Positions 2,478 through 55,099 of a stretch of 64,000 bases of DNA are shown here, piece after piece. The position numbers and the translations under genes were made by a program. The stretch is taken from IMG/VR virus record IMGVR_UViG_3300006037_000005, positions 32,001 to 96,000 of that record; one strand, 5' to 3'. The notes below the pieces were generated by a model. That model was not told the origin of the DNA and searched no databases. It worked only from the letters and a program-made list of their open reading frames with translations. Positions within the stretch are counted from its first letter, which is position 1, and the number at the start of each line of letters is the position of its first letter. Source of the DNA: a virus.

Positions 2478-3315
2478 AACGTAAGCAATAATTGCACCAG
2501 ATCCATCTTCATATTGTAATAGATGAAAATCTTATTATTTCACAAGTTATTAGATTTTCATCTATTATACATTCAACCAATGCACCTATTCTGTATGGAT
2601 TGGGATTATTATTGTGTTGTGGTATTTCTATATTACCAAAAATGGGTTCTTAAATTTGGTAATTTTGTATGTTTTAGATGGTTTATTTTTGAATATAAAT
2701 TCTTCTTTCTCTTTGTCTGTCAATCCAGAAGAGACAATATCATGTATCAATTGATCAATGTGGCTTGTTTTATCTCTTGATACAACAATTAACATCTTGG
2801 TGTTACCCTCTTCTTTCATCTGATGCTCCATAATTTTGTATTAATTTTTAACAATATTATATTTTGACTTCAAGATCTTGATATCTCCATTTACATATTG
2901 GAAAATAACCATGTGTGCCATTTTGATTTTTGATATGGTTTCTAGATCAAAACAATCAATATTAACATCTTGTATTTGATTTTGTACATCTGTTAAATCA
3001 GCGGTTTCGAGTATTAAAATATCTGAATTTTTCATTTATCATGAAGATTTTTAAATTGTAATTTTTCATGATAGGATTTCCTCTTCTCGGTATTTGCCTG
3101 TCTATTGAATTTCCTTCTATAAAGTTCAATAACACTATATTTTGGTAAGACAGCTTCAACCATTGATTTTACGGCAGAACCAAGGGATCTGTGTTCTGAA
3201 TATTCTTCATTAAGCCTGTCCAAAACAGTAAATCCAAATAATCCAGACTGTTTTTTAACAATAAATCTTTTCCTTATTTTTCTTAACAATTTGACTTTCA
3301 TTTTATCTCTTGTTG

Positions 3316-3389
3316 TGGGGCTTGTAGGATTCGAACCTACCACCTACTGATTATGAGTCAGTTGCTCTAACCTAATGAGCTAAAACCCC
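3316..3389 (-). tRNA. tRNA with CAT anticodon, probably Ile2 (lysidine type), otherwise elongator Met
   Basis: GGGGTTT/AAGCCCC acceptor stem, TAGCTCA..GGTTAGAGCA D-arm, ACTGA-CTCATAA-TCAGT anticodon arm, GTAGG-TTCGAAT-CCTAC T-arm, discriminator A, no encoded CCA. Confidence 0.92.
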
Positions 3390-17872: not shown

Positions 17873-18836
17873 TTTATTAATTCAAATCCTTTTTCTATAG
17901 CACGATTGAGTGCTGTATGATAGTTATACCATTTCTTGTCTGAACTATGCAAAATGACACCATTTTTGAATATAACAAAATCAAAAATATTTCTAAACCC
18001 TTTATCATCATTGATAGTTTTTATTTTTCTTGGTGATATATCGATTTTATGTTTTGTTCTGAACCAATCTATTGCATCTTGATATGTTGGTACTGGTAAA
18101 AGATTTTTCGGATCTTCTGCCTTGCCATATATTGGTTTTTCACCATCATAATACATGGTAAAATCAGCTTTAAAATGTTTAGTTTTAAAGATTTCAGCTA
18201 TGTTTCTATTCACAAATACAGTTTTCATACTTTTGTTATTTTGCACCAATCTTTGCCGTCACCATCGATATTATTAATAAAAAAGAATACCCCATCGCAA
18301 TTAGTTGCGTAAATTTTATATCCAATTCTGTGATGCTGTTGAAGAATATTCATATCAAACTCTAACTCTCTATGATCATTAACATCAAAATTAACTGCTA
18401 CTATTTTGATGTTTTCTTTGCTAATATAAACCCTTTTGCTCTCGATCATTATTAAAACAAATCTTTCTCTATGAACCAAAAATTTTTTAATTGCCCTTTA
18501 GCAGAATTTGGTGCAAGCAATAAGATGTAAGATACAGATCTAACTATTTTTGAAAGAAAATAAAGAATAATACCAATAGAGAATATAAATATGATATAAA
18601 GTATGAAAATTACAAGTCTGAAGTATTTTTGAATTCTGTCTTTCATGTTGGATCATATTGTTGTATTTCTGATTCTGATATGTAATCTATGGTATATCTA
18701 ACATCTGGAACACAAATTGGAGTTCCAAGATATATCCTTGTTTTACCACCAATAGTAACAACTTGTGCTATTGTTGTGTTTTGATTGTAAGTCTTTATTT
18801 TTGCACCTTCTACCAATTTCATAACATATTATTTTG

Positions 18837-18912
18837 AGTTTGAGAGGAGAATTGAACTCCTGTTAAATTAGTTTTGCGGACTAATCCCTATACCAACATT
18901 GGGTACTCAAAC
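18837..18912 (-). tRNA. tRNA-Cys(GCA) with atypical C33
   Basis: GTTTGAG/CTCAAAC acceptor, TTAGT-CCGCAAA-ACTAA anticodon arm, AGGAG-TTCAATT-CTCCT T-arm, U73 discriminator (Cys identity element). Confidence 0.8.
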
Positions 18913-23496: not shown

Positions 23497-23662
23497 TTGT
23501 TTTTAAAGATTTTTGTTAATATGAAATAAAAGCCTATTATTGTTGCTCCCATAGACAGAAGGGATAGAGGTGGTGAAACATAATTGAATATGTAGACATT
23601 GAGATTTACTAAAATCATAAACAATATTACTAAACCAACTATTATAGATAGATTTTTCATTT

Positions 23663-24130
23663 CTATTCTTCTGTTTTTGTTTCAGTCAATGATTTAGCGA
23701 TCGGTGAAGGTTGTACCCATTTACCACCATTCATCCAACCTATTTGATTTTCAGTATCGAAAACACTCTTTCTATATTCAGTATTGCGAACAAGTCCCAT
23801 AGTAACTGATTTCACAAATTCTGATTTTTCTTTTTCTACAGTTAGTTGTGATTTTAAAATCTCTAACTCTAAATTGAATTGCATTTTATTCAATTCTCTT
23901 TCCCTTTGGTCAAGTTCAGAATTTCTCGCATCATGTTTTCTGTATTCTTCTACAATAGAATTCAATTTTTCCACTTCTTGTGATTTGGTGGCAAGAAGAT
24001 TTTTATATAATTCTAAAGACTTAGCATCTTTATCTGCCTGCTCAAGTCTTACTTTCAAGACATCACCAACATGTGCTGGTAGATTTTTCTTTATGATTTC
24101 TTAAATCTCCTTGTTTGTGTTTGTATCCAT
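23663..24130 (-). pseudogene. Coiled-coil hypothetical protein with an in-frame TAA at codon 10
   Basis: ATG 24130 reads MDTNTNKEI*EIIKKNLPAHVGDVLKVRLEQ, in frame with ORF 23663..24058. Confidence 0.55.
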
Positions 24131-25024
24131 TTTTGTTTATTGTTTAGCTCCTGTTTTGATTAAATATTCTGAATAAAGAATTTCTATCATACCATCAACT
24201 GGTTGAAATTTCTTATTTCCTTTTGTATCAATGAAAAATTCAGAGGTTTCAGAATTTTCATGAACATTAAAAGAACCAAAATATTTTTTACCAATGTTAA
24301 ATGGCTGGAAATTTATTAAAGCATTTAGAGAATCATATGTTATGATCGGTAATGCTTTAATAGCATCTGCAAATTCAGTTCCTTGTTTTGGCATATATCC
24401 AAGTCTAACTTTCTTCCAAATCTTAGAATCTGGATTTTTGTCGAAAGCGATAGCTGATATACCACCACAAACAGCACCCATGGAATCAGATCCATAATAA
24501 TCAACATCCTCCTCTACAAATTTCATGAATAAAGATTTAGATTCAGATACTGCATTTTTGCAAGAATCAGAAAAATCTTTAAATTTTTGGTGTAATTCAG
24601 ATTCTTTATCTATTTTGTAAAACATGTTATATTTTAGTTTCTAGTGTTTTTCTCAATTCTTTTATCTTCTCAAAAATATCTGGATTTTCTTTTTCCATGA
24701 ACAGATCGTGTTCTAGATTCTCTTTCAAGATGTTGTCTTGATTTATATCTTTGATTATCTCATTATCAGAAATTTCCGATAAAATATCTGGATTTTCAAC
24801 AGATTTGTGGCTATATTGTGGTGATCCTCTACCATCAGTTATTTTTAAAAAACCATCACCATTGTGATTATCTATAATAAATGATGTTCCACAATACTTT
24901 ATTTTTATACCTTGTCTCGTAGAACCAACATGTAAATTCTGCCAATGGAGTGGAGTACCAGATGGTGTCACAACATAATTAATACCAACAATTGATACCT
25001 CTTCATTGTTCCAATAATATTTTA

Positions 25025-26140
25025 TCATAGATTAAAAGTTTTAGTTTCAATATACTCTCTTAATTGTATGAAACCTTTATAATTTTTACACCAACCAAAA
25101 TTGTTTGGATCTGTTATCTTACCTCTACAGTAGCTATTATATTCATCAGTAGACATAGATTTGGCACAATGTTGCAAAGGACTATTGTGATTTTGTTTAA
25201 TTAAATTATCAAAAAGTTTAAAATCATTTTCATAATTATGTTTGTCTGGATGGCCAACTGTTGTATAAGAAACCCTTGCACATCTTGCTGTTGCAATCTT
25301 AATTTTTGCTTTCACGAAATTATCTTTTGAAAACTCCGATTTAGATTTTAGGATTTCAACAAGTTTTGTATTATCAATATCATCACCAAAAGGTGTGTGC
25401 CATTCAGATGATTCAAGTATTTTTGGGGTTGAGTTATTGTAAGCATCATACATATCTTCTGCCAAAGATGATATATGTATTTCTGCCATCCCATCATTCA
25501 TAGATAACCAATCTGTATCTGACCATTCGGAAATTTTCTCATAATCGGACAAACCGTTTTTGATACTGGACCAATGTTTTTTAGCCTCTTCCCTACTCTT
25601 ATACCTAAGATCATTTTCTTTACCAACATATTGATAGTATTGTGGACATCTTAGATTATAAAAATTTTTTAAAGCAGATTCAGTGGTTGTACAAATAACT
25701 GTTTGCCACATGAAACTTTCCAATAATCTATTGGAAATCTGCTTGGTAAGACCCATGGAATCAAGATATTTAGCATTTTTAACTGCATCATTTCTTGCTA
25801 TTAACCATCTATCTTGTAATCTTTCGATATCACAAATTGTTTCACCACCAACCAAATTTTCGATACCATCTGATTCAGTGAAATATTCTGAACCCTGCAT
25901 ACCTTTGTGTTGTTTTTGCCAGGCTATTGGTATGAATGGATCTTCCTCTACAACAGATAACATCTTGCTGAATGGTATAGCCCTAGAAGAACTTGAATTC
26001 TTTGAAAACATATTGTGTGTATTGAGTTCAGCAAGAACTATTCTTGGTAAAACACAAACAAAAGATATCAAATCCTCCCCACCAGATATTGATTTACTGT
26101 GCGCTACAATTTTGGCTGAAATTTTTGTTTTATTATTCAT
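25025..26140 (-). CDS. thyX: Flavin-dependent thymidylate synthase (ThyX/Thy1 family, phage type)
   Basis: PRIVLAELNTHNMFSKNSSSSRAIP, KQISNRLLE, NFYNLRC, ARCARVSY, HNSPLQH. Confidence 0.85.
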   Translation of the reverse strand: MNNKTKISAKIVAHSKSISGGEDLISFVCVLPRIVLAELNTHNMFSKNSSSSRAIPFSKMLSVVEEDPFIPIAWQKQHKGMQGSEYFTESDGIENLVGGETICDIERLQDRWLIARNDAVKNAKYLDSMGLTKQISNRLLESFMWQTVICTTTESALKNFYNLRCPQYYQYVGKENDLRYKSREEAKKHWSSIKNGLSDYEKISEWSDTDWLSMNDGMAEIHISSLAEDMYDAYNNSTPKILESSEWHTPFGDDIDNTKLVEILKSKSEFSKDNFVKAKIKIATARCARVSYTTVGHPDKHNYENDFKLFDNLIKQNHNSPLQHCAKSMSTDEYNSYCRGKITDPNNFGWCKNYKGFIQLREYIETKTFNL

Positions 26141-26578
26141 TATTTTATTGTTAGTATAATTTATTTTCCGTTGTGTATTTGGTTTCTGAATTTTATGATA
26201 TCAGAAAGTTTTGAACATTTTTCATATTCTTCAATTTCTATATAATATTTGTGCATATCTTCTATCAAATCAGAATCAAGACCCACCATTCTTTGGTGTC
26301 TTTCAATGTACATTTCAATACTTTTATAATTTGGATACATTAACATTATAGTTTCATATATGTTATCATAAACCACAAAACCACCATTGTTTATCATATG
26401 ATACAATATTGACATGCATATGTTTATGTGTGCACTTCCTATATTGGTCTGATAACCATTGTGCTGTAAATTACTAGAGGCATAATAAAGAATGTAAACA
26501 TCTGATTTCATCATTCTTAGTATGGTATTCATTTTACTGTTGAAAGCCTGTAATCTGTCTTTTATCCTTTTCATGATT

Positions 26579-27571
26579 CTAGCAATACAAATCTATTTTC
26601 CTTTCATCTGATCTGAAACCATGATTAAACGAACATCTGAAAGAATTCGATATTAATTTTTCAATTTGATCATCGCTAACACCACAAAATTCCTTCAAAA
26701 TTTTGAATTCTTTTCTAATAGAGGTCTGTAAAAAAGAAAATCCGTCAGTATTTATAGTATAAAGAATTTTATACTCATTAAGTTTATCAAAAATGTATTT
26801 AAAATCCTCAATGGCAGTAACACAATCAGTTACTATATTTGATGTTGGGCAAATTTCAAGGCAAATACCTTTTTCCGATACAAGTTCCAAATGTTTGTCA
26901 TTATCTACAATACGAATACCATGCCCTATTCTATCAATTTTTATGTTGTTTAGCACAAAATCCAGTTCATCGGAAGAGCCTCTGGTTTCACCAGCATGTA
27001 TTGTTATTCCAATGTCTGTAGATTCTAAAGATTTAAAGACCTCAAGGTGTGTGTCAAAATTTTTATCTTTGAATTCTCCAGACATATCAAATCCAACTAT
27101 ACCCATCTTTGAATATTTATATGCTTTATCTGCTAATATCAAAGAATTTTCTTTGTTGAAATTTCTTGCTGTTTCTATTATGATACCAATTTTTATTGGA
27201 TATATAGATTCTGCTTTCATTTTGCCTTTTATAGCAGATAGTATGATAGCATCTAAATCATAGAGGCCAGAAAAATTCCTAAGCATTGGATTAAATCTGA
27301 ACTCAATATTAGTAACATTGTGGTTTATATAGAGATTAGAGGCTGATCTATAAACGGATAATTCAACACCATATGGTGTTGATTGTATCTTCTGTGTTAG
27401 ATTGAATTTTTCTAGATATTTGCTATGATCTATTTTATCAGAGAGATAAACAATTTTCTCGAATTCATTATAATCCTTGTATGGTAGCGCTATACCCTGT
27501 TCGTGAGCAATTTGCCACAAATCTTCTGCAGAGCATGAAGATCCAAGGTGGCTGTGTAAATCAGAATACAT
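26579..27571 (-). CDS. Adenosine/AMP deaminase family protein
   Basis: Metal-binding DLHSHLG, TIHAGE, RIGHG, EICPTSN, INTDG. Confidence 0.9.
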   Translation of the reverse strand: MYSDLHSHLGSSCSAEDLWQIAHEQGIALPYKDYNEFEKIVYLSDKIDHSKYLEKFNLTQKIQSTPYGVELSVYRSASNLYINHNVTNIEFRFNPMLRNFSGLYDLDAIILSAIKGKMKAESIYPIKIGIIIETARNFNKENSLILADKAYKYSKMGIVGFDMSGEFKDKNFDTHLEVFKSLESTDIGITIHAGETRGSSDELDFVLNNIKIDRIGHGIRIVDNDKHLELVSEKGICLEICPTSNIVTDCVTAIEDFKYIFDKLNEYKILYTINTDGFSFLQTSIRKEFKILKEFCGVSDDQIEKLISNSFRCSFNHGFRSDERKIDLYC

Positions 27572-28209
27572 AAATTATTTGTTATGGTTAATAATTTTAA
27601 AATGTCTGAAATAAGAAAGTGTGGTATCGACTTCAAATGGCATAACACCACAATTTCTATTTATCCATGGTATACACATGGCAAGTTCGAATGTTGTGAT
27701 ATCCTCTTGTGGTTGCCATATCATTTCCAATGGAATTTGTAATTTAAAATTTGAATAATCCACAAAAATCGCTGTATTATCAAATTTAACTATGTTGCCT
27801 TCTGATTTAATTATTGAATTATCATCCATACTAATATTTTTTTAATTCTAATATTTCTTTTGATATTGTTTTAAAAATTATTTTTGATAAAGACAAGAGG
27901 TGAGATCCCTTATTTTTATTATAAATAGATCTTTTTCTCTTTGAAAATTCCTTCATAAAATTCAATACATCACACTGACTCTTATTTTTTAGATAGTTAG
28001 CTTTAAACTCCAAAAAATCATAATGTAATAATATTGCTTTATAGAAGGATAATTGTGGTTTTTCTAAATTTAGAACAAATTCATCAAATTTTATTGAAAA
28101 TTCTTCATCTACCAAATCTTTATACTTGGTGTGAAGAATTTTCAAATAATCATAATTCAAAGTTTTATATATACGTGTTGTTGACATTAAAAAATTTATA
28201 TCTAGAATC

Positions 28210-30606
28210 TTACAAAGTTTCTATATTGATATCTGAGAAATTGCCGTCGTTTGTTACCGAAAGTTTGTAATCGAAATGGTGGCTTGGTATTTCTGAGTGG
28301 TTACAGATAAAAGTATGCATTTTAAGTTCATCACAACATATCTGTTTTATTGTTCCTATAATGTGATCTCTTGATTCGACATCTATAGAAGATAAAACTT
28401 CATCCAAAAATATGACATTGATATCATTATATTTGGATTTTATGGTTTTTATGATTGATATTAAAGTACAGATGTCCATTTTGGCTCTTGTACCATCAGA
28501 AAAACTATCAAAATCAACTGTTATACCATTTCTATAAAATGTTGGTTTGAATTCCGCATTGAATGCTATATTGCCATTGACATCAAATTTCGGTAGATTT
28601 CTAGATACTTCATTGTTTATGGCTGGTATAATTTGTTGTAATATAAACGCTTTTATACCAGAATCAGAAACAATATCCAATAAAATTGAATCTTCGTATT
28701 TTTCAATCAATAATTTGTTTATAGCCTCTTTTTTGGTTGAAATATTGAGTTCTTGGACACTTGAGATTTTTGTCAAATCTTCTACTGCTTTATTTATATC
28801 TGAAATGTCTTCTAAAACAGATATCTTTGAATTCAGATGTGTGATTTCTTTTTGATAAAGATTTTGGGTTGCTAAAGAGGATTCCAGAGTTTGATTTATA
28901 TATTTCAGAGAATTTTGTATATCTATCAATTTCAAGGGATCAACATCTGATTCCAAATTTTTATCCTTTGTTTTATCAGAAAGTATGGATTTCTTTGAAA
29001 CCATACTTGATAATTCAGATCTTTTAATGGTTATTGTTTTTGAAATAGATTCAGAAGCATTTTTTATCTCTGATATATTCGTTTTGATATCAGATTCCAA
29101 AATCTGTTCTGGTAAGGAGGATTTTGATTTTTGGATCAGAATTTCTGTTTGGGAGAAATCAAAATCAGTTGTTGTACCAAGATTGTTGTAGAAATCAAGG
29201 AGATTAGTAGAAATTTCTTCGAAATCAGTTATAGTATCAAGCAAATTTTTGATATCTGAAATCTTGCCTCTCATGTCACGAAGTTTCTCTGAATTCTGTG
29301 ATGATATAAGATATGAATTCTCCTTATCTTTTATCTTGGCTTCCATAAAGTAGTTAACATAAACCAATTTGTCTTCATCTTCTTTTATTGAAAGTTCAAG
29401 ATTTTCTAAATAAGATGTATTTAAACCCGAATGTAAATCCGAATTACAAGTTGGGCATTTATCATTTTTTTCATAAACCTCTTTATATTTCTTGTTTGAA
29501 AATAAACGATTTTTTATGTCAGAGACAGTAGCTAAATTGTTCGCAATGTCTGTATTATAATCTTCAACAAGTTTCGAATGAATTTCAATATTTGATTTTA
29601 TTGCACCGATCGTATTCTGAATAAATTTAGAATAAGCTACAATTTGTTCAAATTTATCAAGTTTAGCTTTAAGAATTTTATTTGATTCGGCAGAAATGAG
29701 TTCCTGATACAACAATTCAATATCTGCCGTATTTTTATTTACAATAGATTCATTTAACTGAATATCTCTTTCAATATTGTGAATCAATTGGTCTATATCA
29801 GAAAGTTCTTTCTTATTAAGAAATAACTCTATATCAAGCAAATCATTTGATAATTTTAAACGATCAGCTTCTTTTGAAAGTGCTTCAGATTTTAAATTCT
29901 CTAATTCCAGACTATATTTATCCACATATGCTTTACATTCAGAGATCTCTAAATTTCTCTTAGAAAGCATATCGGTTCTGATCTCCTCAATTTTTGCTTT
30001 ATTGGATTCAACACTATGCTCTAGACCAGATATTTCATCATTCAATATATCAATATTGTCTGATTTCTCTTTATAAGATAGCTTAATTTTAGTAAGCATC
30101 AAATTCAAAACATAGAAATTGAAAAGTCTATCTCTAATTTGTCTTGCATCCTCTGGCTTCATAGACAAGAAAGATTTGAAAGATCTTATATTTAGAGATA
30201 TTGTGTTTCTGAATATGTGGATAGGTATGTCTGAAACTTGATTTTTGATGAAATCCTTTAATGAATCAAGAGAACCCAGATCTTCAGCCTCTTGGGAATC
30301 ATTTTTATATAATTTTATGAAATCTGGAGAATAACCCATATGGATTCTCCATTTCGTATTGTTGGATACGATCTGGATATCAATTTCAGCACCTTTCTTG
30401 TTGATTTCGTTTACAATCTGTTTTTTTGTTTTACCACCAAGATCAAAATATAATACTATTTTTAAAATATCAAGTATGGTGGTTTTACCAGTTCCGTTTC
30501 TTCCTTTTAGTAGCCATAGACCAGTTGGTAATGCTTTGAAGTCTATCTCTTGCCATTTGTCACCATAGATTTTAATATTCTTGAATCTTAAACTCTCAAT
30601 TACCAT
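28210..30606 (-). CDS. SbcC/Rad50-like recombination nuclease ATPase subunit (T4 gp46-like)
   Basis: Walker A GRNGTGKTT, coiled coils with CPTC zinc hook, FSDG signature, FLDE Walker B. Confidence 0.92.
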   Translation of the reverse strand: MVIESLRFKNIKIYGDKWQEIDFKALPTGLWLLKGRNGTGKTTILDILKIVLYFDLGGKTKKQIVNEINKKGAEIDIQIVSNNTKWRIHMGYSPDFIKLYKNDSQEAEDLGSLDSLKDFIKNQVSDIPIHIFRNTISLNIRSFKSFLSMKPEDARQIRDRLFNFYVLNLMLTKIKLSYKEKSDNIDILNDEISGLEHSVESNKAKIEEIRTDMLSKRNLEISECKAYVDKYSLELENLKSEALSKEADRLKLSNDLLDIELFLNKKELSDIDQLIHNIERDIQLNESIVNKNTADIELLYQELISAESNKILKAKLDKFEQIVAYSKFIQNTIGAIKSNIEIHSKLVEDYNTDIANNLATVSDIKNRLFSNKKYKEVYEKNDKCPTCNSDLHSGLNTSYLENLELSIKEDEDKLVYVNYFMEAKIKDKENSYLISSQNSEKLRDMRGKISDIKNLLDTITDFEEISTNLLDFYNNLGTTTDFDFSQTEILIQKSKSSLPEQILESDIKTNISEIKNASESISKTITIKRSELSSMVSKKSILSDKTKDKNLESDVDPLKLIDIQNSLKYINQTLESSLATQNLYQKEITHLNSKISVLEDISDINKAVEDLTKISSVQELNISTKKEAINKLLIEKYEDSILLDIVSDSGIKAFILQQIIPAINNEVSRNLPKFDVNGNIAFNAEFKPTFYRNGITVDFDSFSDGTRAKMDICTLISIIKTIKSKYNDINVIFLDEVLSSIDVESRDHIIGTIKQICCDELKMHTFICNHSEIPSHHFDYKLSVTNDGNFSDINIETL

Positions 30607-31262
30607 CTGATTTTCTTTTGTATATTCCTTGGTTTTTCTGTGTTTGATTTGGATATAAGTTCCACTTTATCATACAATCTTGTTGCACAGATTTGTTGGA
30701 AATCTTTGAATATCTTATCTTTAAAATCACTAAAAATATCAAAATAAGAACAGAAACCATAACCATAAATTTCACCCACCTGATTAAAAATATAAACTGC
30801 CACATTATTATCTCTCAATTTAACAAAAACAAATAGGTGAAAATTGGCAAAAAGTACTCCTTGCTCATAGAAAATCTCGTCAAGGATTTTATGTTGTTCT
30901 ATAGAATGTATCTCTCCCATGTTGGTGATGATATCAAGATTGTAATGAAGTCGTGACTTTTTCTGCAATCTTATCTGCAAATTCTTCTATTTTCTTACCA
31001 ATTTTTTCAGAAACCATTTTCTCGATCTTATTTTGGGTTTCAAAACTAAATACTGCTTTGTTTACAATCTTGGCAAGTTCTAATTTGGTTGCTTCACGAA
31101 CAGATTGAACGAAATTATCACCCTCACACAAATCATTTAAGGCAAGTTCAATCCCTTTACCAATTTGTTCCTCAATAGTTCCGTGATGTAATTGAACCTC
31201 CTGGATAAATTTTTGTGCGTTGATTCCTAACTCTAGTCTAATTGTTGCTAATTCTCCCATCT

Positions 31263-35369: not shown

Positions 35370-36260
35370 TCACCAGAGTTTGAATTCTTCTTTGCCATCT
35401 TTTATATTTTTAAATATATGTGCTATAACATCAACAGTCCATGAATCACCGATAACATGGGCAGATTTACACCAAGAATTTAATATTTTTGTATAACCTA
35501 TCGGTAGAGTTTGGGCAATCTCCATTTCCTCTATGGTTGGATATCTGTAAATGTCTTTATCTTTTATTATAATAGAATCGGATGGTTTCTTGTGCATAGC
35601 TTTCATTATGCAAGGTATCTTCAATGATTCTGTTGTAATTATTCTTATCCTTGGCCTTTTCAGCTTGTTCAATTGTGTTCCTTTTAAAACCAAAGATTCA
35701 TCATATTGTTTGGAAACATTATCTTTAAAAAGGATATTCCTATCTTTAGGAATATCTATTCCAGGGATATTAGTCCAATAAAGTCTCCCTCTCGTCTGAC
35801 AAGAAACCAAAGAAGAACATATCCTAATTGGCTCGACACCAAGTATGCTTGTTATATGATCTTTCCATTGTGTTTTCATCACAACATTTTCAAGAAAGAA
35901 ATATTTTGGCTTCGTTTCTTCAAGAATTCTAACATACTGATAAAACAAACCAGATTTTCCATCAAAGCCAGTCATATCACCAGAGAAACTGAAACTTTGG
36001 CAAGGAGAGCCACCGATCAAAAGATCTATTTTTGGTAAATCTTGACCTTTCACTCCCCTCACATCGCCAAGTTGTATTGTATTAGGATGGTGGTGTTGAG
36101 TTACTTTGATTGAATCCTTGTGGATTTCCGAAGCAAAATAATTCTTAAATCTAATATGTGCTTTCAATAAAGCAAGTTGCCCAACTGATATACCATCAAA
36201 TAAAGAAACAACATTTTCTATATCATATTGCATCATGAGTACCCATGTGTCTAATTTCAT
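35370..36260 (-). CDS. DNA (cytosine-5) methyltransferase
   Basis: Motif I SLFDG, IV GGSPCQ, VI LENV, VIII QTRGRLYW, X IGDSW. Confidence 0.9.
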   Translation of the reverse strand: MKLDTWVLMMQYDIENVVSLFDGISVGQLALLKAHIRFKNYFASEIHKDSIKVTQHHHPNTIQLGDVRGVKGQDLPKIDLLIGGSPCQSFSFSGDMTGFDGKSGLFYQYVRILEETKPKYFFLENVVMKTQWKDHITSILGVEPIRICSSLVSCQTRGRLYWTNIPGIDIPKDRNILFKDNVSKQYDESLVLKGTQLNKLKRPRIRIITTESLKIPCIMKAMHKKPSDSIIIKDKDIYRYPTIEEMEIAQTLPIGYTKILNSWCKSAHVIGDSWTVDVIAHIFKNIKDGKEEFKLW

Positions 36261-41567: not shown

Positions 41568-42590
41568 TTACCATAGAGGATCTTTGTGTCCATGAATAAT
41601 ACCATTGAATATATGTGCTATCACATCAACGGTCCAGCCATTACCTAGCATTTTATATCTTTGGTTGTCTGAGACACCCTGTGTGTATCCATCTTCAACT
41701 GTCTGTAGTCTTTCACATTCTGTTGGTGTTAATTTTCTTATAAAATTATCTGTTAAAACACCATGCCTATCGACAGCAGTTAATGTATAGAATTTTGATT
41801 TTGGTGGTTTAAATCTACCTCCATTGTGCCTAGATTTCAATTTGTCTGGTACTAAGCAAGGTATGGCATATAAACCTGTTTTTGCACCAAGACCACCACC
41901 ATTTGCTGATAATGTTACAGATTTATAATGTATGTTATACACTCTATTCCCTTGTGAATCTGTTCCAATAAAAGCAATCTTTCTTCTATCAACTTCATTA
42001 TCACAAATTATTATAGATCTTTCAGTATTTATGATATATTTTTGATCAACTTCCTCCTCAAGTATATCCTCCACTGTTAGTTTCGATTTTTCATATTCAA
42101 GATTCACTGGTATGTTCGTCCAATACCACCTTATTCTTTCCTGTGCTGAAAAATCTGTAGAATCTATTCTGATTGGATAAACTCCGACCAACTTTGTTAT
42201 GACATCCAAATACTCCTCTTTCATATTAACATTTTCAAGAAAGAAATATTTTGGTTGAAGTTCGTTCTTTAATCTCAGAAATTCAAAAAACAATTTACTC
42301 CTAGGATCATCAAAGTTTAACTGCTTACCAGCAAAACTAAAACCTTGGCATGGGCTTCCTCCCATCAAAAGGTCTATTTTTGGCAGATCTGTTGTCTTTA
42401 TATTTCTAACGTCACCAAGTTGTATTGTATTAGGAAAATTCTTTTGTGTGATAAAAATAGAAGATCTGCAAATTTCTGAGGCAAAGTATTGTTTGTATTT
42501 GATACCAATTTTGTTTAGTGCTATCTGCCCACACGACATACCATCAAAACATGATAAAACATTTTCTATTCCAAAATTCTGTTGCTCCAT
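41568..42590 (-). CDS. DNA (cytosine-5) methyltransferase (second paralog)
   Basis: SCFDGMSCGQ, GGSPCQGFS, LENV, QERIRWYW, RKLTPTECERLQ, LGNGW. Confidence 0.93.
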   Translation of the reverse strand: MEQQNFGIENVLSCFDGMSCGQIALNKIGIKYKQYFASEICRSSIFITQKNFPNTIQLGDVRNIKTTDLPKIDLLMGGSPCQGFSFAGKQLNFDDPRSKLFFEFLRLKNELQPKYFFLENVNMKEEYLDVITKLVGVYPIRIDSTDFSAQERIRWYWTNIPVNLEYEKSKLTVEDILEEEVDQKYIINTERSIIICDNEVDRRKIAFIGTDSQGNRVYNIHYKSVTLSANGGGLGAKTGLYAIPCLVPDKLKSRHNGGRFKPPKSKFYTLTAVDRHGVLTDNFIRKLTPTECERLQTVEDGYTQGVSDNQRYKMLGNGWTVDVIAHIFNGIIHGHKDPLW

Positions 42591-51915: not shown

Positions 51916-53151
51916 TCAAATCTCAAATCTATCCTCTGTATATTTACCAGTTCCAATCCAACGCATTTTAACATTGGAGAATTCTTTTGAAGATTTTATG
52001 ACAGAATAAATATTTTCTTCTAACCAATCTTTGAATTTATCGGTAATAATATCTGTTCTCTCATTCATATTCCAATCCACATGGTTAGCAAAATTTACTG
52101 ATATGAATATTTTATGTGGTGTTTGATTGAAGATTATTGAATCTTCCAAATTTTTTTTAGAAAATGTTGCAACTCTTCTTGGTAATTTTGTTAAAGTTGT
52201 TAATGATGTTAAATCTTCGTCTGCACCACAACCAAGTCTAACATCTTCCCAAGTTATTTCTTTTTGATCATCATACCAATCACCAGAATATGAATCAACC
52301 TCCTGATAGTCGTAGTTACCAGATTGAACTTCAGCCCAAGTCAAGAATTTTCTTGAAACAATATCAATATATTTCTTGCTATTGATACGAATCGGAAATG
52401 TTCTAGTATTTAATGCTATATTGCCAACAACTGTGACAGGCAAAAACATATCATCAAGACCAGCAGAAACAGTCACATTTCTTGATGTGGTATTCGTACC
52501 AAACAAACCATAGCCATTAGAAAGAGGAAATCCTTGAGCAAGTTCCAACAAACCAGACTGACCTTGGGAAAGTCTCGTTAAAATTTCCCTTGGAACATCA
52601 CAGATAAACTCAGCAAGTTCTGGGACATCTTTAGCCAAAAGTTGATTTTTATCTCTCAGCACACGTCTTGCTCTAGTGCATCCAACACCACTTGATGTGC
52701 TACCAGTTGCATAAGTACCCTTGTGTTCTTCAATGGCTGGTTTACCATCAAAACCATATTTACCTTCTTCATAGAGTCTGTCGATATCTTGAACAATAGC
52801 TGTCATTGGAGAGATACCAATTTTGTTACGAGGGATACCTGTAATTTCAATTTCATTGAAAAATGCTTTCAAATCTATGATGCCACCTTGACCAATATAC
52901 ATTTTTTCGAATTCGTAATGGCGATGTGCATTTGAATTAAATTGTTTATAAACAATTTCTTTGCTACCATTGGCTCTATCGATTACAGTATGTGATGCTT
53001 GTGGTGCAAATGTATTACAAACAAATTGGAATTTACCAACATTTTGCATCGTAATAAAAGAGCCAAGGCTACCTTTGCCTGCAGAACCAGCACATGAATC
53101 GAGTATTACCGATAATTTACCTGATAAGAAAAATTCGTCTTCTTTTTTCAT
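51916..53151 (-). CDS. purZ: PurZ-like N6-succino-2-amino-deoxyadenylate synthase (PurA paralog)
   Basis: DSCAGSAGKG (Ser in place of PurA catalytic Asp13), ASHT, GST, AQG, TSRNVT, RTFPIR, TTLTKLPRR, VNFAN; likely start MKKEDEFF at 53151. Confidence 0.85.
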   Translation of the reverse strand: MKKEDEFFLSGKLSVILDSCAGSAGKGSLGSFITMQNVGKFQFVCNTFAPQASHTVIDRANGSKEIVYKQFNSNAHRHYEFEKMYIGQGGIIDLKAFFNEIEITGIPRNKIGISPMTAIVQDIDRLYEEGKYGFDGKPAIEEHKGTYATGSTSSGVGCTRARRVLRDKNQLLAKDVPELAEFICDVPREILTRLSQGQSGLLELAQGFPLSNGYGLFGTNTTSRNVTVSAGLDDMFLPVTVVGNIALNTRTFPIRINSKKYIDIVSRKFLTWAEVQSGNYDYQEVDSYSGDWYDDQKEITWEDVRLGCGADEDLTSLTTLTKLPRRVATFSKKNLEDSIIFNQTPHKIFISVNFANHVDWNMNERTDIITDKFKDWLEENIYSVIKSSKEFSNVKMRWIGTGKYTEDRFEI

Positions 53152-53263
53152 TTCTAATTTTTTTGGTGTTTCTTCTATTATTGCTTTACTACATGGGGGT
53201 TTCAATATAAATGGTGTCAAGAAACTTCAGACGTTCCAATGGTAAATAAAGAAAAGGAACAGC

Positions 53264-55099
53264 ATGAACACCAATGATATTAAAATAGGAAAAGAATTTA
53301 TTGAAATTATACCGAACCAAGAATATTCCTTGAAGAAAGCATATCTTGGTTTTTATTGCCCCAAATGTTTAAAAGAAAAAACCATATGTTTATTGTCTGT
53401 TTTAAAAGATTATACCAATTCTGTTGGTTGTGGTTGTAGAAAGAAAATAGGGAAGCCTTTTATAAAATCAAAACCATTATCTGAATCAGAATGGGAAGAA
53501 ATATTTTCAAAAATACCCATACAGCCTTTGAATTTTAATGATCTTCTTGGTTTTACAATATCGGCTAAAAAACAAATCCCTTTTATTTGTGGTTGTGGTA
53601 AGATTTTTGAATATAATATTGGAAAGATAACAAGTTCCCATACAAAAACTTGTGGTAAATGCAATATAGTAAATCCAAAAGAAATCTCTTACAGCAACGG
53701 CATTTTGTATAATGGTACTTCTGATTCGATATCTTCAACTTTATCAAAAAATGAAGATTTTATTTGTGGTTGTGGTAATCAATTTAAAGCACCCTTTAAT
53801 TGTGTTGTTTCGGGGAAACAAAAATCTTGTGGTAAATGCAAAATTCTTTCATACCCATCATATATCGGAAAAACATTTGGTAGACTTAAAATTTTAGAAT
53901 TCATTGGATCAAAAGGCAGAATAAATGATCCAAAGAAATCGGAGAATTTCTTCAAATGTGAATGTTCGTGTGGCAATGTAAAAGAAATAACAACATCTGC
54001 AATATTAAGAAATGGATCAAAAGGAAAAATTTCTTGTGGTAAATGTTCAAATGTTGCAAAAGAAATTAGAATGGCTAATCCTTTTCCAGGTTTGCATGAT
54101 TACAAAAAATTGGAACTTTGGTTTGAAACACAATTCATAAAACCAATTGTTCCTATCAATGAATACACAATAAACAAAAACAAAATACCAATGCACTGTA
54201 AATTGTGCGGTGACGATTTTGATACATCTTTATATGATATTAAAAGAGGCAAAATTTTGAGTTGTGGTTGTTTATCAAACAGAATATCTCAAATGAACAC
54301 CGAAGTTGGAACATTTATAAAAGAACTTGGCTTTGAAATCCAATATGAACATTATCTTGGTGAAAATTTACATTCTGATATTTTTGTTAAGAATAAAAAC
54401 CTTGTGATAGAAATGAACGGAATTTATTATCACAAAGAGGCTACAAGATTAAGTGAGATTAAAAAATTCAATAAAGCAAAAGAAATTGGATATGATTTTT
54501 TAATGTTCTATGAAGATGAATGGAGAGATAAGAGAGATATTTGCAAAAATCTCATTAAACAAAAACTTGGTATAAATTCTGATATTATAAAATTAAGACC
54601 AAAGGATTGTGAAGTTAGAATTGTGAAATCACCATTGGTTAAAGAATTGTTTGAAAAATTCCATATACAAGGTTACAGACCATCAAGTTTTAATATAGCT
54701 GTCTATCATAAAGATAATCTAATAGCCTGTATGGCAATTAATAGACCATCAAGACAAAATATAAAAGAAGATTATGAAATTTCAAGAATGGTTTGTGATA
54801 CGAAATATAGGGTGAACGGACTTTGGTCTTTTTTGTTCAAATATATTGAAAGAACAAATCTGTTTACTGGAACTATTACAACATTTTCTGAAAACAGAAT
54901 ATCAAACGGAAACATATATTTAAATATAGGAATGGTGCATTGTGGTAATGTGAAATCAGATTATTATTGGTGTGACACAAGGAACAGATTCCACAAATCT
55001 ATGATGAGAGGTAAAAATGAAACTTTGATTAACAAAGAAAAAGGCTACCACAAGATTTTTGATTTGGGAAAGAAGAAATTCTCAACAGAGATCTTGTGA
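53264..55099 (+). CDS. Hef-like free-standing endonuclease: Zn-ribbon repeats + Vsr/DUF559-type nuclease + C-terminal Mom-like GNAT domain
   Basis: Repeated CxCG...SCGxC; DIFVKNKNLVIEMNGIYYH..EDEW; HIQG, YEISRM, SENRISNGNIY, IFDLGKKKF. Confidence 0.75.
   Translation: MNTNDIKIGKEFIEIIPNQEYSLKKAYLGFYCPKCLKEKTICLLSVLKDYTNSVGCGCRKKIGKPFIKSKPLSESEWEEIFSKIPIQPLNFNDLLGFTISAKKQIPFICGCGKIFEYNIGKITSSHTKTCGKCNIVNPKEISYSNGILYNGTSDSISSTLSKNEDFICGCGNQFKAPFNCVVSGKQKSCGKCKILSYPSYIGKTFGRLKILEFIGSKGRINDPKKSENFFKCECSCGNVKEITTSAILRNGSKGKISCGKCSNVAKEIRMANPFPGLHDYKKLELWFETQFIKPIVPINEYTINKNKIPMHCKLCGDDFDTSLYDIKRGKILSCGCLSNRISQMNTEVGTFIKELGFEIQYEHYLGENLHSDIFVKNKNLVIEMNGIYYHKEATRLSEIKKFNKAKEIGYDFLMFYEDEWRDKRDICKNLIKQKLGINSDIIKLRPKDCEVRIVKSPLVKELFEKFHIQGYRPSSFNIAVYHKDNLIACMAINRPSRQNIKEDYEISRMVCDTKYRVNGLWSFLFKYIERTNLFTGTITTFSENRISNGNIYLNIGMVHCGNVKSDYYWCDTRNRFHKSMMRGKNETLINKEKGYHKIFDLGKKKFSTEIL

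Follow-up and report, generated by a model that had tools for sequence, protein, structure and literature searches.

A divergent adenosine deaminase-family gene in a large PurZ-encoding phage and its possible role in Z-genome biosynthesis

The sequence analyzed here (the window) is a 64,000 nt stretch of phage DNA, bases 32001-96000 of the 126,598-bp IMG/VR record IMGVR_UViG_3300006037_000005 (G000 below). The record is approximately 60% complete by CheckV and has a G+C content of about 29% (71% A+T). It represents a large uncultured phage that is T4-like and of the Bacteroidota type. The window contains a divergent gene of the adenosine deaminase (ADA) family at positions 26579-27571 on the minus strand, and farther along a gene for a homologue of PurZ, the synthetase of the 2,6-diaminopurine (Z) pathway. 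The deaminase gene is predicted to encode an intact zinc-dependent purine 6-aminohydrolase. Related genes accompany PurZ in other viral records, and a functional tie of the deaminase to the PurZ pathway is much more likely to exist than not. As judged from sequence, the chance that the enzyme is a sink for adenine (deoxy)nucleosides or nucleotides that serves the Z pathway is slightly better than even.

The deaminase gene and its predicted active site

The gene and the motifs mapped on its product are as follows.

26579-27571, minus strand: ADA-family (PF00962) deaminase gene of the 'DG' clade, 330 aa, ATG start (open reading frame list and Pfam)
27548-27556, minus strand: residues 6-8, HSH, the HxH zinc ligands (motif mapping); the LG that follows replaces the LD of ADA (D19 to Gly)
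27275-27295, minus strand: residues 93-99, FNPMLRN, clade signature (invariant alignment columns; profile alignment to bovine ADA)
26987-26998, minus strand: residues 192-195, HAGE, with zinc ligand His192 and catalytic Glu195 (ADA H214 and E217)
26918-26932, minus strand: residues 214-218, RIGHG, with catalytic His217 (ADA H238)
26741-26752, minus strand: residues 274-277, NTDG, with Asp276 retained (ADA D295, a zinc ligand) and Gly277 in place of ADA D296

The protein matches the Pfam A_deaminase family (PF00962) with an E value of 1.2e-45 and 156.5 bits (gathering score 27), and the alignment is end to end: residues 4-316 cover profile positions 4-315 of 330. Against TIGR01430, the NCBIfam adenosine-deaminase equivalog, it scores 169.3 bits, which is below the cut-off of 216.55. 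A PHROG search assigns it to no family. The AlphaFold2 model, made with a 44-sequence alignment, has a mean predicted local distance difference test (pLDDT) of 93.8 and a predicted template modeling score (pTM) of 0.91. Foldseek gives 243 PDB matches to the predicted model at E <= 0.001, with template modeling scores (TM) of 0.85-0.89 to bacterial, Plasmodium and mammalian ADAs; the match to the pentostatin-bound Salmonella ADA 6n9m has a TM of 0.88. The model displays the (beta/alpha)8 amidohydrolase fold. Canonical ADAs (Salmonella 6n9m, Vibrio 6n91, mouse 1a4l and bovine 1krm) share this TIM barrel with a TM of 0.87-0.88, and have the same zinc ligands, catalytic Glu, His and Asp, length and single-domain organization, but sequence identity is only about 21%.

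The HxH, HAGE and RIGHG motifs, which a first-pass annotation of this DNA had described as intact, are all located in the 330-aa reading frame. Profile alignment to bovine and Vibrio ADA shows every zinc ligand to be retained, along with the catalytic Glu, His and Asp, and H6, H8, H192, E195, H217 and D276 are invariant in 15 of 15 aligned phage ADA-family proteins. There are two substitutions at positions that are Asp in canonical ADA. The solved enzymes read 'SLNTDDP' (bovine), 'INTDDP' (Vibrio) and 'SVNSDDP' (Plasmodium) at the NTDG site, and the ribose-contact Asp after HxH ('HVHLDG' in ADA) is Gly in the phage protein ('HSHLGS'), a change that the first-pass annotation does not mention. 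In mouse ADA, D296 contacts the purine N7 and D19 a ribose hydroxyl, and the D296A mutant (PDB 1fkx) is reportedly strongly impaired. The same annotation had singled out NTDG in place of NTDD or NSDD; the replacement of ADA D296 by Gly277 is confirmed, but it is not specific to the phage and represents the consensus of a whole clade. R98 of FNPMLRN is invariant in this clade and aligns near ADA L106/L107 by a manual column count. The protein consists of a single ADA domain; Pfam and PADLOC searches found no CARF or other sensor domain.

The deaminase has 2171 homologues at E <= 1e-5, and the consensus of 44 of them is HxHLG...FNPMxRN...INTDG. The DG clade is defined by the signatures HxHLG, FNPxxRN and xTDG, and the window deaminase is 35-49% identical to its members. 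FNPxxRN with its invariant Arg is specific to the clade when compared with canonical ADA. With each prokaryotic species represented by a single genome and 600 pattern matches listed, a scan gave at least 595 confirmed cellular loci, mainly in Chloroflexota, Nitrososphaerales and candidate phyla radiation bacteria, some of them on chromosomes of 2-3.6 Mb. Among the 80 best cellular loci, 61 read xxDG (NTDG, GTDG or NSDG) by regular expression, with 18 unmatched and one other reading. A quick tree places the window deaminase inside the clade with a Shimodaira-Hasegawa-like approximate likelihood ratio test (SH-aLRT) support of 98. The phage deaminase is thus placed by sequence in an uncharacterized but ordinary cellular ADA-like clade, and the phage is taken to have acquired its gene from this widespread group. 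Neighborhoods of the cellular genes show synteny in Chloroflexia only and are uninformative on function; the two commonest neighbors are lipoyl synthase-like and E2 acyltransferase-like, as judged from N-termini without a family search.

Co-occurrence of the deaminase and PurZ

Viral records picked by ADA alone, with DG-type and type-2 ADAs (listed below) pooled, contain PurZ in 19 of 29 cases, and in 11 of 12 when the record is at least 70% complete; these counts are not corrected for phylogeny. The link to purZ that the first-pass annotation had put forward as hypothetical is therefore supported. The DG-clade pattern scans contributed 22 viral loci, and six of the 20 searchable records are PurZ-positive. 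Records with ADAs of types 1 and 1b are PurZ-positive in five of six cases, and the remaining one, G004, is only 5% complete (16 kb), with an ADA that groups with a Kuenenbacteria protein in the quick tree. Two further ADA-only pattern scans added 13 new records. Four of these have PurZ, including both that are at least 90% complete (408 and 395 kb), and the nine PurZ-negative ones are 14-89% complete.

The converse comparison starts from PurZ. There are 364 confirmed PurZ-relative stretches among the 2.9 million contigs of the viral collection, and the best 80 of the 364 were analyzed. PF00962 is present in 9/37 records whose PurZ is at least 37% identical to that of the window and in 3/43 with a more distant PurZ; at 90% completeness or above the figures are 4/9 and 1/8, respectively. 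ADA matches are rare in GenBank phages: of 50,697 records, the window protein as query finds seven, a type-2 query six and the G101 protein none. No known PurZ phage is present among the GenBank ADA matches listed.

UvsX was used for a lineage control. A UvsX-alignment scan gave 80 loci, of which 32 were searched, i.e., all contigs of at least 40 kb and seven shorter ones chosen by hand. ADA is found in three of six PurZ-positive records and in none of 26 PurZ-negative ones (Fisher p = 0.004, uncorrected for kinship; p = 0.035 when limited to records at least 50% complete). The PurZ-negative relatives without ADA include genomes of 413 kb and 388 kb. Equal frequency in relatives that lack purZ would have spoken against the proposed link, and it is not seen in these records.

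The backbones of the ADA-positive phages differ. Homologues of the window UvsX are present in only two of 18 large PurZ-positive records (G035 and G043), and none is found in the complete ADA-positive genomes G008, G040, G042 and G048, which argues that the ADA and PurZ pair is present on unrelated backbones. ADA and PurZ are the sole genes that locus L012 has in common with the window phage over approximately 20 kb; locus L011 has a weak helicase match in addition. At least four ADA lineages accompany PurZ, and cellular and other sequences fall between them in the quick tree. The ADA types are distinguished by the following motifs.

Type 1: NTDG, plus C[ST]DG variants in G098, G099 and G101
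Type 1b: CTDS/CTDA
Type 2: HxHxGG ... DLVGDE ... HVGE ... [NG][TS]DDP
Type 3: CTDN; clears TIGR01430

The type-3 ADAs of G008 and G076 score 227.2 and 218.5 bits against TIGR01430, unlike the window deaminase. The three ADAs from UvsX-related records are again of 'xxDG' types. In two of these relatives, G099 and G101, a guanylate kinase gene (gmk; PF00625, 76.9 and 71.3 bits) comes next after the ADA gene, at a distance of 7 and 4 nt, respectively. The immediate neighbors of ADA in 13 related loci mostly match no Pfam family. Besides the gmk genes of G099 and G101, a kinase-like gene (AAA_33) is located near the ADA of G048. Other families next to ADA genes are unrelated (LAGLIDADG, peptidase M24, TauE and glucosaminidase). 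In G022 the type-2 ADA has the LAGLIDADG endonuclease gene as a neighbor (L120:230-1159), and a TauE/SafE-type membrane exporter gene, an odd neighbor for a phage, is directly after the ADA of G005 (L119:620-1447).

PurZ and other Z-pathway genes in the record

51916-53220, minus strand: PurZ-type adenylosuccinate-synthetase homologue, 434 aa, P-loop GSAGKG (PDB and PHROG matches)

The gap between this gene and the deaminase gene is 24.3 kb, in agreement with the earlier estimate of about 25 kb. The best PDB matches of the PurZ homologue are 6fm1, 6fko and 6tnh (6.4e-16; database label 'Adenylosuccinate synthetase'), which we take to be PurZ of phage phiVC8. The match to S-2L PurZ (7odx) is at 4.4e-13, and that to PHROG 1211, '2-aminooxy adenylosuccinate synthetase', at 9.1e-19. 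Ser is present at the position of the PurA catalytic Asp (GSAGKG), while the TLTK Thr and the NF Phe are both retained; roles for the PurZ diagnostic residues are given in section 8 of bioRxiv 10.1101/2025.10.22.683976. The Ser P-loop is found in 82 of 87 PurZ-like open reading frames and Asp in none of the 87, with five unmatched by the regular expression. The phage DNA is predicted to contain Z.

A PurB-type lyase (PF00206, 94.6 bits, 457 aa) is encoded outside the window in the same record, where a MazG-like gene (214 aa) directly adjoins a guanylate-kinase-like gene (198 aa), also outside the window. No IMP dehydrogenase (IMPDH) gene was found in the record, so that a phage-encoded funnel from A to G is incomplete here. 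NDT (PF05014) was not found in the record. DUF550 (PF04447) was not found either, but this is a weak negative in that the PF04447 control was positive in 0/14 genomes.

The region next to purZ contains a 611-aa reading frame at 53264-55099 on the plus strand, divergent from purZ. It was tried as a large terminase and relatedness marker, gave no relatives and proved to be an HNH homing endonuclease (PHROG 559, 4.9e-48; PHROG 3339, 1.3e-45); UvsX replaced it as the marker. Five further viral loci, L057 (G003), L097 (G008), L069 (G050), L080 and L086, have a homologue of this endonuclease next to PurZ, which suggests that mobile endonucleases travel with purZ. The PurZ of G003 is a single 794-aa frame (L009:3509-5890 / G003:C1:13293-15638) whose two halves, matching query residues 21-257 and 230-431, are split by a large in-frame insertion that is intein-like in appearance.

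Proposed role of the deaminase

The deaminase is most likely part of a dispersed set of nucleotide-pool genes centered on PurZ. In this scheme the MazG-like pyrophosphatase would convert (d)NTPs to (d)NMPs, PurZ would convert dGMP to dSMP, the PurB-like lyase dSMP to dZMP, and the guanylate-kinase-like enzyme dZMP to dZDP. A DatZ-like HD hydrolase, described below, would convert dATP to dA. The HD hydrolase, the MazG-like enzyme and the breakdown of host DNA would together release dA and/or dAMP, which the deaminase would convert to dI or dIMP; a return to dATP would be barred and the removal of adenine made irreversible. The hypoxanthine ring could then pass through IMP and GMP to dGMP, and by way of PurZ, PurB and Gmk to dZDP, such that guanine nucleotides feed PurZ. 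The direction of flux is an inference, as is the substrate, for which adenine, Ado, dAdo, (d)AMP and other compounds are candidates. The base composition is relevant here, in that an adenine-draining deaminase would work against a phage with 29% G+C unless its DNA makes no use of A.

A nucleotide substrate is plausible. The ribose-contact Asp is lost, an invariant basic residue, Arg in type 1 and by manual reading Lys in type 2, is located near ADA L106/L107, and there is a precedent in KomA, the PF00962 enzyme of the Kongming defense, which prefers dAMP, produces dIMP and leaves dATP untouched according to bioRxiv 10.1101/2024.12.20.629578. KomA shows that an ADA fold can act on deoxynucleotides. 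It is nevertheless a host defense component with HAM1 and SIR2 partners.

A more specific proposal is tentative. The divergent ADAs (the DG and 'HVGE..DDP' types) might be dAMP- or dA-specific deaminases that were recruited independently as a third way to exclude adenine and close a net loop from A to Z. If so, the deaminase would be the only adenine-exclusion route seen in G008, G040 and G048, where neither DatZ nor the HD gene of the window phage lineage is found, and host-derived dAMP or dA would enter the hypoxanthine pool and proceed to dGMP and dZMP. Adenine removal in the published Z pathways is carried out by phosphohydrolases (DatZ, MazZ/DUF550, DutZ and DUF5664) or by a glycosidase/transferase (DmtZ), and a deaminase arm would be a new chemistry. 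It would extend 'functional convergence' to the large and jumbo phages with very divergent PurZ that are found in freshwater and soil. It would also account for the way in which a phage of high A+T content, half of whose bases must come from guanine-derived nucleotides, could rebalance an adenine-rich host pool. Such an enzyme might also be a tool for the production of Z-DNA with less residual A.

The deaminase differs in family from the known enzymes of adenine exclusion. DatZ of S-2L, phiVC8 and other phages is an HD-domain dATP triphosphohydrolase, unrelated in fold and chemistry to an ADA-fold protein; both are found with PurZ and share a proposed purpose, to keep adenine out of phage DNA, so that the likeness is a functional analogy at most. 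The DutZ, DUF5664 and DmtZ proteins of PurZ0 phages are independently recruited nucleotide-pool enzymes, presented as 'functional convergence' by Poubanne et al. (NAR 2026, PMC12884076), where DmtZ is said to destroy dAMP. DutZ and DmtZ belong to other families than the deaminase (dUTPase-like and NDT, respectively). The literature search found no published link of PurZ or Z genomes to an adenosine deaminase. Neither bioRxiv 10.1101/2025.10.22.683976 nor PMC12884076 uses the word 'deaminase' in its main text, while their supplementary tables (116 associated Pfam domains; presence/absence) could list PF00962. The main texts searched thus suggest that a role for a deaminase in Z-genome biosynthesis is unreported.

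Canonical and distant DatZ

The first-pass annotation had suggested that the enzyme depletes dA nucleotides in place of DatZ and had named a canonical datZ elsewhere in the genome as a check. None was found in this approximately 60%-complete record: S-2L DatZ has no match by phmmer and PF12917 none at E <= 1, and S-2L MazZ also has no phmmer match. A distant HD gene was traced through weak YfbR-like matches in related records.

G000:15874-16473 (L311:1375-1974), minus strand, outside the window: distant DatZ/YfbR-like HD gene, 199 aa (motif order compared with S-2L DatZ)

The protein shares with S-2L DatZ the motif order QH..H[D/E]..E..GD..P.K. The phage copy reads 'LHHE' at the site where relatives have 'L[LYFW]HD' (G001, G035, G042 and G043 read 'HD'), and ahead of its GD motif there are two insertions of one residue each. 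The gene has a clamp-loader-like AAA gene on one side and a 682-aa gene on the other, and this order is conserved. The HD profile is positive in G001, G042, G098 and G101, all of which have ADA, and in G043 and G035, which do not. It is negative in all nine PurZ-negative UvsX relatives searched and in G005, G006, G008, G022, G040, G048, G052, G059 and G076. A second HD protein in the record, 193 aa in length, resembles small alarmone ((p)ppGpp) hydrolases (G000:C1:25054-25635, L005:1348-1929, minus strand, outside the window), with matches to PDB 6yvc at 3.4e-4 and PHROG 990 at 1.5e-21.

Canonical DatZ (PF12917 over the cut-off) is present in six of 48 PurZ-positive records, all six ADA-negative; in the same search it is found in 0/13 ADA-positive and 6/35 ADA-negative records. 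The predicted anti-correlation with datZ is therefore seen for the canonical gene, but it does not extend to the distant HD gene, which coexists with ADA. That the deaminase replaces DatZ as the only phage means of removing dATP or dA is unlikely. The absence of a detected canonical DatZ, the 0/13 count, the 'HE' reading and small insertions of the phage HD homologue, and the ADA- and PurZ-positive records without DatZ or the lineage HD gene (the complete jumbo genomes G008, G040 and G048, and G022 at 91%) are all consistent with replacement. On the other side are the HD gene itself, the intact-HD homologues that accompany ADA in G001, G042, G098 and G101 and were found only in PurZ-positive records (0/9 PurZ-negative relatives), and the incompleteness of the record. 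Direct deamination of dATP would also give mutagenic dITP, and the one ADA-fold precedent, KomA, spares dATP. The complete PurZ-positive relatives G043-G047 have no ADA, so that the gene is optional. The deaminase is best described from these sequences as an optional add-on in this lineage and not a DatZ replacement, while 'ADA instead of DatZ' may hold in the jumbo lineages G008, G040 and G048.

Evidence against a tie to PurZ, and alternative explanations

A number of observations weigh against the proposed role as an adenine sink of the Z pathway. In the UvsX control, presence of PurZ goes together with closest kinship to the window phage, and the two-by-two table is confounded by descent. 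The deaminase coexists with a DatZ-like HD gene. As many as 68 of the 80 PurZ-positive records have no ADA; most are fragments, but 12 of 17 at 90% completeness or above also lack it. The ADA-negative relatives G043-G047 are about 150 kb each and look like one species group, and the cultured PurZ-positive Flavobacterium phage MaF61 has no ADA; a term search of the MaF61 paper (PMC13269007) found no mention of DNA modification. Conversely, 13 of 20 ADA-positive viral records are PurZ-negative, with other (C[TSC]DN-type) ADAs and mostly in proviruses. G133 (L331, 233,959 bp, 89% complete) has a type-2 ADA and no detected PurZ-type gene and is the sole near-complete exception to the pairing; PurZ was also not detected in ADA-positive G132, which is 51% complete. 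The DG clade is cellular and housekeeping-like, and its wide distribution in cells implies that the Gly substitutions did not arise as an adaptation to Z phages. Distances of 24 kb and approximately 64 kb separate the deaminase gene from purZ and from mazG and gmk, respectively, and its immediate neighbors match no known family. Lastly, the PurZ homologue is only 25-28% identical to characterized PurZ, and the residues that correspond to F12 and Y298 of phiVC8 are Ala and His.

Several of these points would fit a generic purine-salvage auxiliary of large phages with no tie to PurZ, for which co-occurrence would be due to descent or genome size: an ordinary cellular enzyme, a gene that is optional among PurZ-positive relatives and not adjacent to purZ, and other ADA types in PurZ-negative viral and proviral records. 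This explanation is improbable in view of the 0/26 count in PurZ-negative UvsX relatives, which covers the genomes of 413 kb and 388 kb, the separate ADA lineages on unrelated PurZ-positive backbones, the 11 of 12 near-complete ADA-positive records with PurZ, and the coupling of ADA with gmk in two relatives. An adenine drain would also be costly for a 71% A+T genome that uses A.

Deaminase, adenylosuccinate synthetase and lyase are the trio of the purine nucleotide cycle. The phage has homologues of all three, and the divergent 'PurZ' could in principle be a PurA that runs IMP/AMP interconversion with PurB and the deaminase, with no Z synthesis. The low identity to known PurZ is in line with this, but it is very improbable given the P-loop Ser that replaces the Asp of PurA throughout the PurZ-like set, the retained TLTK Thr and NF motif (roles as in the main text of bioRxiv 10.1101/2025.10.22.683976), best PDB and PHROG matches that are to PurZ, and the co-occurrence of MazG-like, Gmk-like and DatZ-like genes.

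The deaminase could alternatively act on 2,6-diaminopurine compounds, converting ribo-Z or stray Z nucleosides to guanine forms and thereby protecting RNA or recycling the base. ADA enzymes deaminate 2,6-diaminopurine nucleosides to guanine nucleosides, and such a role would be specific to PurZ phages and consistent with the co-occurrence. The DG clade is, however, common in cells without PurZ, the role presupposes that ribo-Z forms, an enzyme that acted on dZ or dZMP would undo the work of PurZ in a futile cycle, and no sequence feature points to recognition of the 2-amino group; this role is also very improbable.

Least likely of all is a counter-defense enzyme that deaminates adenine-based immune signals (cyclic oligoadenylates or ADP-ribose-derived): ADA domains do occur in defense systems, and the protein has a PADLOC CARF_ADA match at 2.2e-25 and a weak NCBIfam RdrB match at 0.0006, but it is a catalytic domain with no sensor or binding domain, its association is with PurZ and not with a defense context, and its neighbors are thyX and, in relatives, gmk. 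Cad1/CAAD and RADAR RdrB (ATP/dATP deaminases; PDB 9c67 match at 3.7e-11) have the same ADA catalytic domain, but they are large, multidomain, oligomeric and signal-activated proteins, unlike the 330-aa single domain of the phage.

Local neighborhood and other features

The genes around the deaminase are as follows.

25025-26140, minus strand: ThyX-type thymidylate synthase (PHROG 85 at 2.1e-47; Pfam Thy1, 27.6 bits)
26161-26574, minus strand: open reading frame, 137 aa, 4 nt downstream of the deaminase gene, no Pfam, PHROG or PADLOC match
27575-27829, minus strand: open reading frame, 84 aa, no Pfam, PHROG or PADLOC match, ending 3 nt upstream of the deaminase start

The thyX and deaminase genes are in one tightly packed minus-strand string with gaps of 3, 4 and 20 nt, and the single 137-aa reading frame separates them; the proximity to thyX noted in the first-pass annotation is therefore correct. 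A scan of positions 23500-31000 gave 53 promoter-like sites where 50.9 are expected, and no convincing minus-strand terminator was found in this region. Co-transcription of the deaminase with thyX is suggested by spacing alone. The ThyX homologue is long (371 aa); its Pfam Thy1 match is weak and short (residues 284-329) and its PHROG 85 match strong, and the protein appears from these matches to be divergent or rearranged.

The window also has two C5 cytosine DNA methyltransferase homologues on the minus strand, at 35370-36260 and 41568-42590. The first matches the N-terminal third of the Pfam profile only (positions 2-112 of 324). Two tRNA genes are present on the same strand, tRNA-Met (CAT) at 3315-3389 and tRNA-Cys (GCA) at 18836-18912.

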